A DNA stretch of 64,000 bases, taken from Candidatus Heimdallarchaeota archaeon. Its GTDB lineage: Archaea > Asgardarchaeota > Heimdallarchaeia > Heimdallarchaeales > Heimdallarchaeaceae. The DNA lies in contig JAUVXV010000002.1 of the NCBI GenBank assembly GCA_030603365.1, positions 32,001 through 96,000 of the forward strand, written 5' to 3'. The notes under the pieces are model-generated. The model had not been told where the DNA came from. It saw only the letters and a program-made list of their open reading frames with translations, and searched no databases. The position numbers and the translations under genes were made by a program. Shown here piece after piece: positions 51,166 to 52,619 of the stretch. Positions within the stretch are counted from its first letter, which is position 1. The number at the start of each line of letters is the position of its first letter.

Positions 51166-52278
51166 CTATCCAAACCAAGTTGTACCAAGTTGATCTTCAT
51201 ACTCAGCATTCTGTTGTAAATAAAAATCTCCAGGTTCATAGTAGAAGTAAGTATTGCTGTAGTTGTAAGTTGCTTCATAAGAGTAAGAAAACGCTTCATA
51301 GTCTGTTTTTCCATCTGCAAGTCCTTCAAAGAAATAATGTGTGAAAGCAGCTCCATATGCACCATTGAAATCTTTATTTATATCAAAATATTCAAAACTA
51401 TCACCGAACCATTGAGCGGCATGATGCTCATAAGAAGAATTATAGGTATAATTGTATTGAGTAGATGCCATCATAAAAACATCTTCAGCGTTTCTTGGGT
51501 CTTTCAGTTGATATTCATAAACAAAATCACCACTAGAACAAGAGTCAACTATTACAATTATATTTTCTGATTCCAAATTCTCTATTTCATCTGCAAAATC
51601 ACTACTGTACAAAAAATTATATACGATTGGATAACTGATTGCTATTTGAGAGTCTCCACCATAATCCCAATCTGAACCATTGTAAGGACAACCATGACCT
51701 AATATATGAATAAAAACAAGAGATTCACTTGTTTCAATATCATCTAAGTCTTCTATACTATCTTTCCAATCATATGGATTTTCATGATACAGAACATCAC
51801 CAAAATATAGGTTGTTTTTTAAGTAATTCCCATATTCATCTTCGATCATGCTCTGATTTCCAACATCTGAAGCCCACATGAATAGAGCTACACGACCTTC
51901 TAGAGTCATATCTTTTGTGTGAGTAGAGCTTGAAGGTGAAACGAAATTTGATTGCCAAAAGCATCCTATCATTTCAAGACCTATCGCATAAAATTTGTAT
52001 TGAACAGTTGTCCAACTTAATTCATAATTTCCATCAGAATCAGTATAATCATGTGTTTTGACAGCACCATCTTCTCTTAATTGCACCTTTACTCCTTCTG
52101 CACCGGTCGTGGTTCCTTTTACTGTAACCGTACCATTAAAGGTTACTAGACCATAGTACGGTGCTCCTGCAACATTGGTGTTTTCTATATTTCCATAAAA
52201 AATTGGCATCAAGATTGATAATACCAATATACTCATTATTATTTTATTACTTTTTTTCATTGTTTTTCTACCTTCCAT
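51166..52278 (-). CDS. secreted caspase/legumain-fold (clan CD) cysteine peptidase with an N-terminal Ig-like domain (likely start 52260)
   Basis: VFIHILGHG (His-Gly) ... IIVIVDSCSSG (catalytic Cys) ... MMAST ... AFTHYFFEGL; signal peptide. Confidence 0.75.
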   Translation of the reverse strand: MEGRKTMKKSNKIIMSILVLSILMPIFYGNIENTNVAGAPYYGLVTFNGTVTVKGTTTGAEGVKVQLREDGAVKTHDYTDSDGNYELSWTTVQYKFYAIGLEMIGCFWQSNFVSPSSSTHTKDMTLEGRVALFMWASDVGNQSMIEDEYGNYLKNNLYFGDVLYHENPYDWKDSIEDLDDIETSESLVFIHILGHGCPYNGSDWDYGGDSQIAISYPIVYNFLYSSDFADEIENLESENIIVIVDSCSSGDFVYEYQLKDPRNAEDVFMMASTQYNYTYNSSYEHHAAQWFGDSFEYFDINKDFNGAYGAAFTHYFFEGLADGKTDYEAFSYSYEATYNYSNTYFYYEPGDFYLQQNAEYEDQLGTTWFG

Positions 52279-52441
52279 AGTAGGTAACTAGTAGACGATT
52301 TTTCACTATATAAAATAAACAAAAATTCGCGACAAACATTTTGGACGAAATTTAAAAAAGATTGTAACCCGTACTTCTTAAATTGTATTTCTTTTATAAA
52401 CTAGGGAATAGATTTTTTAACAACTGTTATTCTAATATCTT

Positions 52442-52500
52442 GATGAGTGGGATTAGAATTCTCTACCTTCCATAGTAAGGGTTCTTTTTCCCACCTCATC
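52442..52500 (+). ncRNA. candidate antisense hairpin sRNA targeting the RBS of the clan CD peptidase
   Basis: 22-bp interrupted stem with two G-U pairs; 52462-52477 is identical to 52267-52282; tttataaa at about 52393-52400. Confidence 0.5.
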
Positions 52501-52619
52501 TTCATATTTGCTAGATTGTGCTTATTGAGTCTTTTGCTTGAGTCTTTTGTAATACATCTGAGACACTAGGATTCATTTGTAGCTCCAAGTTCTCCTACAT
52601 AAGAGTTAATTTGCCAAAC

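Follow-up and report, generated by a model that had tools for sequence, protein, structure and literature searches.

In archaea, sRNA162 of Methanosarcina mazei and similar base-pairing small RNAs mask ribosome-binding sites (PMC3510493; reviewed in PMC4152357 and PMC5867862). The locus described here resembles sRNA162 in that an exposed segment of an archaeal small RNA is predicted to pair with the 5′ UTR/ribosome-binding site of an mRNA; however, RNAs of the sRNA162 type are single genes with their own target sets, whereas here a multi-copy family places one copy beside each target, combining a conserved scaffold with an exchangeable guide in an Asgard host, with exported proteases as the targets identified; no sequence or Rfam relationship to the known RNAs was found.

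Bacterial systems offer further comparisons. In the divergently encoded type I antitoxin RNAs IstR-1/tisB, OhsC/shoB, and OrzO/zorO, as at the present locus, the RNA gene adjoins its target in a divergent, non-overlapping arrangement, a short region of 15-20 nt is complementary to the leader of the target, and each regulator serves a single gene. Type I targets are small toxic membrane proteins, usually hydrophobic peptides of less than about 60 aa, whereas the target here is a 364-aa secreted enzyme, the hosts are archaeal, and one scaffold is common to many pairs; the likeness to a type I antitoxin suggested in an earlier note on this DNA is therefore only architectural. The C4 antisense RNA of phage P1/P7 immI (Rfam RF01695) is also a short structured RNA situated just upstream of its target, with pairing to the ribosome-binding region that co-varies between relatives, but it is cut from the target's own transcript, whereas a separate divergent promoter is predicted here. 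Finally, in the kissing-loop antisense systems CopA/CopT, RNAI/RNAII, and Sok/hok, complementarity is automatic because the partners overlap on opposite strands of the same DNA; here, guide and target do not overlap, and their complementarity is maintained by co-evolution. As in those systems, the partners of one of the two scaffolds described below (type 1) can both show complementary bases in the loops of small stems; several guides of the second scaffold (type 2) instead lie in the 5′ arm.

That antisense RNAs can mask start regions is well established; what is new is the multi-copy scaffold-plus-guide organization and the host lineage. RNA-based regulation is, to our knowledge, almost unexplored in Asgard archaea, and our search of the literature found no described regulatory small RNA for Heimdallarchaeia. 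From comparative sequence analysis, the locus looks like a member of a previously undescribed family of neighbor-encoded, guide-bearing hairpin RNAs beside exported protease genes of Heimdallarchaeaceae.

A Repeat and a Hairpin Upstream of a Peptidase Gene

The window, that is, the whole 64,000-nt stretch of DNA analyzed (contig C15:32001-96000 of assembly G000, an assembly with 33% G+C), contains the 16-mer TCTACCTTCCATAGTA exactly twice, at 52267-52282 and 52462-52477, 195 nt apart (Table 1). Across the whole 3.65-Mb assembly, sequences with up to two mismatches to TCTACCTTCCATAGTA were found only at this pair and at a paralogous pair, which has one difference. Both placements given in the earlier note proved exact: the first copy spans the AAGGTA/GGAAGG sequence and an in-frame upstream ATG (52278) of a minus-strand open reading frame, and the second is the apex of an interrupted 22-bp hairpin (6+5+8+3 bp). 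At the RNA level, the first copy covers the Shine-Dalgarno-like AAGGUA and the upstream AUG, and stops 6 nt short of the AUG at 52260, which is the probable start of the reading frame (MKKSNK...).

On the + strand, the hairpin has a minimum free energy (MFE) of -24.4 kcal/mol (z = -4.5; 0 of 200 shuffles equally stable) and includes two G-U pairs (U52459-G52481 and U52460-G52480); the minus strand gives -20.9 kcal/mol (z = -3.1). When local exact direct repeats of at least 13 nt from the genome (n = 126) were sorted by hairpin stability, the window locus and its paralogue took ranks 1 and 2. An Rfam scan of the whole window returned no match at gathering thresholds. A conserved oligo-T terminator was sought after the hairpins and none was found; a T5 run at 52485-52489, inside the 3′ arm of the window hairpin, could end transcription prematurely and is not conserved in the paralogue. 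The CUAC/GUAG stem that had been proposed to loop out the target in the mRNA leader does exist, but it is weak (-6.5 kcal/mol, z = -0.55) and no more stable than shuffled sequence.

The product of the minus-strand gene was recognized by Pfam only below threshold (CarboxypepD_reg for the window protein, Peptidase_C13 for orthologues), whereas two targets elsewhere in the family, L097 and L089, pass the Peptidase_C14 threshold. H189-G190 and C241 are invariant in 11 homologues, and an AlphaFold model (mean pLDDT 70) found its best Foldseek PDB matches in MALT1 paracaspase, metacaspases, and GSU0716 (E = 7e-6 to 1e-4). Because of these invariant residues and structural matches, the target is assigned as a signal-peptide-bearing, secreted peptidase of predicted caspase/hemoglobinase fold with the His-Gly ... 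Cys dyad of clan CD, which agrees with its earlier designation as a caspase-like protease. A NosD/beta-helix gene comes after the peptidase gene at all homologous loci checked and is likely its co-expressed partner.

Table 1. Features of the hairpin and peptidase locus, in window coordinates.
Feature	Position	Strand	Basis or annotation
NosD/beta-helix gene, 3′ of the peptidase gene	49367..50980	-	Pfam, synteny
Target gene, 364 aa	51166..52260	-	Signal peptide, CarboxypepD_reg-like Ig domain, caspase-fold (clan CD) peptidase domain
Putative target site UACUAUGGAAGGUAGA in the peptidase mRNA	52267..52282	-	Sequence match
Peptidase gene TATA box TTTATATA	52307..52314	-	Conserved in type-1 loci
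Predicted small-RNA promoter, BRE-like GGAATAGA then TATA-like TTTTTTAA	52404..52420	+	Conserved position
Putative hairpin small RNA, type-1 scaffold	52442..52500	+	Folding, conservation in 8 loci
Putative guide, apical 16 nt UCUACCUUCCAUAGUA	52462..52477	+	Complementary to the peptidase mRNA leader

On the other side of the hairpin, 126 nt downstream, lies an internal 211-nt fragment of a TnpB gene (52626-52836, + strand), corresponding to about aa 377-447 and 75-76% identical to the internal part of two intact tnpB genes in the same assembly (G000:C14 and C3). Next comes what remains of the C-terminal part of a NosD-like beta-helix gene (52863-53216, + strand); the two appear to be decayed genes, situated between the putative small RNA and an MFS transporter gene (53410-54717).

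Co-variation of Guide and Leader at Homologous Loci

The layout seen in the window recurs at a paralogous locus of this genome (C1:~250.1-250.7 kb). The hairpin and the leader are conserved between the two, whereas the spacer between them has diverged, and homology breaks off precisely where the hairpin has its distal foot (52506). The same T-to-A change is present in both 16-mers of the paralogue; ...GGAAGG... in the window stands against ...GGATGG... there.

Further loci were obtained by genome and protein searches from G023, G020, and G001, from a metagenome contig (L074), and through protein homologues (L075 to L081). At 12 homologous peptidase loci, a hairpin is present 154-186 nt upstream of the start codon. 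The type-1 closing stem, GAUGAGUGGGA / UCCCAC-CUCAUC, is conserved in eight loci and encloses a variable interior. Together the 12 loci carry nine distinct guide/leader sequences of 13-16 nt, each exact within its own locus; in mRNA sense, these are TACTATGGAAGGTAGA, TACTATGGATGGTAGA, ACTACGGATGTTAGA, CCTTATACCAAAG, TACCTTATAGCAAAG, (T)ACCTTAAACCAAAG, TAGTTGGCGAAACAA, AGTTGACGAAACAAT, and ATTCGAATCGTGAAA. Single-base changes are mirrored in hairpin and leader (CCTTATACC vs CCTTATAGC vs CCTTAAACC; GTTGGCG vs GTTGACG), and some loci have guides wholly different from the rest. The presence of the hairpin at homologous loci and the co-variation of loop and leader, the absence of which would, according to the earlier note, refute its proposal, were both found, in the form of nine exact pairs and mirrored changes, and the main interpretation of that note is supported. 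Guide and target, 195 nt apart in the window, are separated by 119-226 nt at other loci and do not overlap.

In all four loci of the CCTTA... group, a fixed difference between hairpin (AAAGATG) and leader (AAAGGTG) adjoins the co-varying core. In an RNA duplex this difference would be a U-G wobble, and its position beside a co-varying core argues against conversion tracts or simple homogenization.

A strict type-1 pattern was scanned against 185,579 species genomes and the JGI metagenomes, and yielded only MAGs of Heimdallarchaeota, a single additional contig (L074), and bacterial matches clearly due to chance; the pattern was too strict, since L075 was missed. Matches to the R1 model below about 35 bits appeared noise-like on inspection, and RNAalifold on MAFFT alignments of the hairpins was uninformative because the variable interiors misalign. 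The upstream regions of the G025 and G013 orthologues are without any repeat of the hairpin/leader kind, so the regulator is dispensable; the locus of the G017 orthologue is cut by a contig end.

Predicted Promoter and Strand Assignment

The TATA-like TTTTTTAA of the predicted small-RNA promoter (52413-52420) leaves 21 nt between the end of the box and the first G of the hairpin. At type-1 and type-2 loci alike, each hairpin is preceded by a BRE/TATA-like box that ends 21-22 nt from its first base, on the strand antisense to the target only, with nothing comparable on the sense side. It occurs in the versions GGAATAGATTTTTTAA, ATAGATTTTAATA, AAAGCTTAAATA, and ATATTTTTATAA, and the upstream regions of tRNA genes of the same genome are in the same style (AAAG plus TT(T)AAAA). 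A different box had been singled out previously (tttataaa); it is present at 52392-99 but is not conserved.

The two G-U pairs had been taken to favor a + strand RNA. These pairs are real. The MFE asymmetry favors the antisense strand in six type-1 loci but shows no preference, or the opposite one, in L075 and several type-2 loci, so that the MFE comparison is not decisive across the family and the promoter box is the feature relied on for the strand. Because this box lies at a fixed distance and on the antisense strand only, the hairpin probably gives rise to a small RNA that is transcribed divergently from the neighboring gene and would bind the mRNA of that gene at the 5′ end, the Shine-Dalgarno sequence, or the AUG. 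The divergent, non-overlapping arrangement proposed in the earlier note is in keeping with the predicted + strand promoter and the distance between guide and target. Counted from the TATA box of the peptidase gene, the distance to the start site that is established for archaea places the predicted transcript start near 52285, at the 5′ edge of the target site.

A Second Scaffold and the Wider Family

A second scaffold (type 2, loci of the G001 type) has the closing stem GGAGCTAG...CTAGCTCC. A search with the type-2 pattern found 18 hairpins, in G000 and in 8 of the 24 other genomes of the genus, and none in six genomes searched from the family's other genera; the reversed pattern, used as a control, gave zero matches. 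When the promoter was included in a covariance model, 19 matches were obtained in 9 of 25 genomes of the genus, all consistent with the promoter in orientation. Of the 25 genomes of the genus, 10 carry hairpins and 15 do not. For most type-2 hairpins, a 10- to 15-nt match or a more extended, wobble-containing duplex lies 119-177 nt away, at the start of genes whose products have signal-peptide-like N-termini. The targets include Peptidase_C14 (caspase-like) proteins, more distant CarboxypepD_reg paralogues, and, in G000, two S8 subtilases whose start codon is covered by ATGATCGAAATGAA.

Overall, a hairpin with a matching site is present at about 25 loci, which do not count as independent samples because all come from one Heimdallarchaeaceae genus. 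The longest substring shared by a hairpin and its own flanks is at least 13 nt in 20 of 28 hairpins; for non-cognate flanks the median is 8, and shared substrings of at least 13 nt occur only between loci with the same guide. All but one site end 0-12 nt before, or overlap, the start codon of a gene with a signal-peptide-like product start. Complementarity to the Shine-Dalgarno/AUG region of the target is kept by co-variation, with exact matches of 13-16 nt at the 20 hairpins and mirrored substitutions. Inside the extended duplexes of the whole family, 10 differences are wobble-compatible and 3 are transitions of the opposite kind. The family would thus follow a simple rule, in which a conserved closing stem of either type carries a variable guide matching the translation start region of the adjoining gene. 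Among the neighbors examined, the N-terminus is always signal-peptide-like and, where the product is assignable, it belongs to the caspase-like peptidases or the S8 subtilases; targets outside the window range from 200 to 540 aa. Other genes around the loci checked are acetyltransferase-like, NosD, luciferase-like, and pyridoxamine-oxidase-like, with no TnpB among them, and no conserved protein gene was found beside the hairpins at the loci examined.

A small inverted repeat, YCAC/CTAC - N3-5 - GTGR/GTAG, recurs in type-2 leaders (e.g., L012, L076, L023, L097, L094, and L091; examples are TCAC-ATTAA-GTGA and GCTACT-AAA-GTAGC). Its place is between the TATA box and the start codon, some 8-12 nt ahead of almost all target sites, and it may be a 5′-terminal mRNA stem or an operator.

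Proposed Mechanism and Alternative Explanations

We favor, with a probability of roughly 0.7, a small RNA gene with its own promoter whose product blocks translation of the neighboring peptidase. The hairpin would be transcribed from an archaeal promoter away from the peptidase gene, and its apical 16 nt would base-pair with the peptidase mRNA over its first ~16 nt, including the Shine-Dalgarno region; pairing would block ribosome loading and possibly trigger mRNA decay. Antisense pairing is the simplest model because it requires the guide/leader co-variation that is observed, and the position of the site at the translation start suggests that the effect on the target would be repression. Cofolding predicted the small RNA:mRNA heterodimer as the MFE structure at all nine loci tested, with a gain of -1.6 to -9.1 kcal/mol that includes the cost of opening the hairpin. 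Many guides carry wobble-forming bases in place of a perfect anti-Shine-Dalgarno sequence (AAAGATG, GAGACGAT, GAGATAAT), which might avoid titrating other mRNAs.

In the window and other type-1 loci, guide and target are each able to fold into a 4-bp stem closing a 6-8-nt loop, so initiation by loop-loop kissing is plausible there. Complementary loops are predicted for type 1, and the YUNR U-turn motif is in neither CUUCCAUA nor UAUGGAAG. With the guide of several type-2 RNAs in the 5′ arm rather than at the apex, the apical kissing geometry put forward in the earlier note holds for the type-1 scaffold and not for every member of the family.

The RNA might also be made and paired as described and yet act positively or through a partner protein. 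The mRNA 5′ end would then be shielded from a 5′-3′ exonuclease, or the stem would be a handle for a dedicated RNA-binding effector in RNA-guided silencing or targeting of RNA, or of start-region DNA. The target does start at the predicted mRNA 5′ end, two sharply conserved closing stems with freely variable interiors resemble protein handles, and RNA-RNA and RNA-DNA pairing fit the co-variation equally. We nevertheless consider such action unlikely, as the paired segment includes the Shine-Dalgarno sequence or AUG nearly everywhere, as occlusion predicts, and the hairpins have no conserved protein gene beside them. Argonaute was specifically considered, and a search for a Piwi domain found none in the 89%-complete genome. 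It is equally improbable that the closing stems are handles for an archaeal RNA-binding effector in a natural, programmable, gene-by-gene form of RNA-guided silencing, with guides copied from the start region of the neighbor into the scaffold.

A reading that dispenses with antisense pairing would make both copies identical DNA or RNA sites for one sequence-specific protein, or the hairpin a decoy of the sense-strand leader. It draws on the direct-repeat orientation of the copies, each of which contains a small inverted repeat (CTAC-N8-GTAG or CCTT-N6-AAGG), and on the MFE of some members, which is compatible with sense-strand folding. We regard it as very unlikely: at least 15 unrelated guides occur among close relatives and within-genome paralogues, and no single protein could read all of them, whereas a protein that reads shape would not need matching copies. 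The promoter motif, moreover, is confined to the antisense strand, and the fixed A/G and C/T differences are those that preserve wobble pairs.

Least credible of all is a non-functional by-product of local duplication, target-site duplication, gene conversion, or a TnpB element remnant, for although a TnpB fragment lies nearby in the window and an orphan hairpin in G023 between tRNA 3′-end direct repeats hints at past rearrangement, the hairpin and its matching site recur at loci whose neighbors include no TnpB, mirrored point changes beside fixed flanking differences are not what conversion tracts or the decay of duplicated sequence would leave, the two arms of the hairpin would be divided between host and insert in a target-site duplication, and the spacer has diverged around a promoter and a hairpin that stay conserved.

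Several specific candidates were also rejected. Target-site duplication and gene conversion do not fit the pattern of fixed and mirrored differences. The alternative raised in the earlier note, a guide or end structure of a TnpB element (omega-RNA or IS200/IS605 end), fails because the hairpin lies upstream of an internal tnpB fragment only, the guide is internal to the hairpin, and the other hairpin loci examined are without TnpB. As for a C/D box sRNA, the UGAUGA at the type-1 5′ end lies in a perfect Watson-Crick stem, CUGA is missing from both the window hairpin and the paralogous one, neither box is seen in the type-2 consensus or its conserved ends, and Rfam gave no match. A small open reading frame on the sense strand begins in the hairpin copy of a subtilase locus, but an upstream reading frame is not general at other loci.

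Implications

If the favored reading is correct, these loci represent a co-variation-supported regulator family whose rule is a conserved stem plus an exchangeable 13-16-nt guide at the start region of the neighbor, and they would link post-transcriptional control to exported proteases, caspase-like and subtilisin-like, that probably have a central role in organisms living by protein degradation. Such a compact natural scaffold could be reprogrammed for archaeal gene knock-down, and the paralogous pairs, because they differ by single bases, make the family a good system for studying the evolution of regulator-target specificity. Were the closing stems effector handles instead, the loci would represent RNA-guided silencing in the archaeal lineage closest to eukaryotes.

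Broken, Orphan, and Incomplete Loci

At the paralogous B locus (L022; G000:C1:249376-250377), the signal-peptide region of the peptidase gene is interrupted by a stop and what appears to be a frameshift, and the hairpin/leader pair is still perfect; the gene is either a recent pseudogene or the product of an assembly error. An orphan type-1 hairpin with the guide CCTTAAACCAAAG was found in L051 (G023:C28, ~1205-1610) at a position syntenic with L074/L077, and this guide has no exact target within the G023 genome. The hairpin lies between ~23-26-nt direct repeats of the 3′ end of a tRNA-like gene (TCACGCTCTGGGCTCCAATTTTT), which has an insertion in the T-arm region and received no ARAGORN call; the arrangement suggests integration, excision, or loss of a peptidase cassette.

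Two further type-2 copies are situated at contig ends, with the target side cut off. These are near-identical hairpins of the subtilase type less than ~230 nt from the contig ends (G000:C1:700809-700874 and C14:344748-344813), where repeated protease cassettes seem to break the assembly. At L082, the 14-nt guide TTGGTGAAAGACTG of a type-2 hairpin (G000:C1:340026-340095) occurs again 150 nt away (340246-340259), behind a TATA box and without a nearby start codon, and is followed by radical-SAM-like genes; at C1:~342.7 kb, a truncated peptidase paralogue is preceded by a decayed copy of this same hairpin half.
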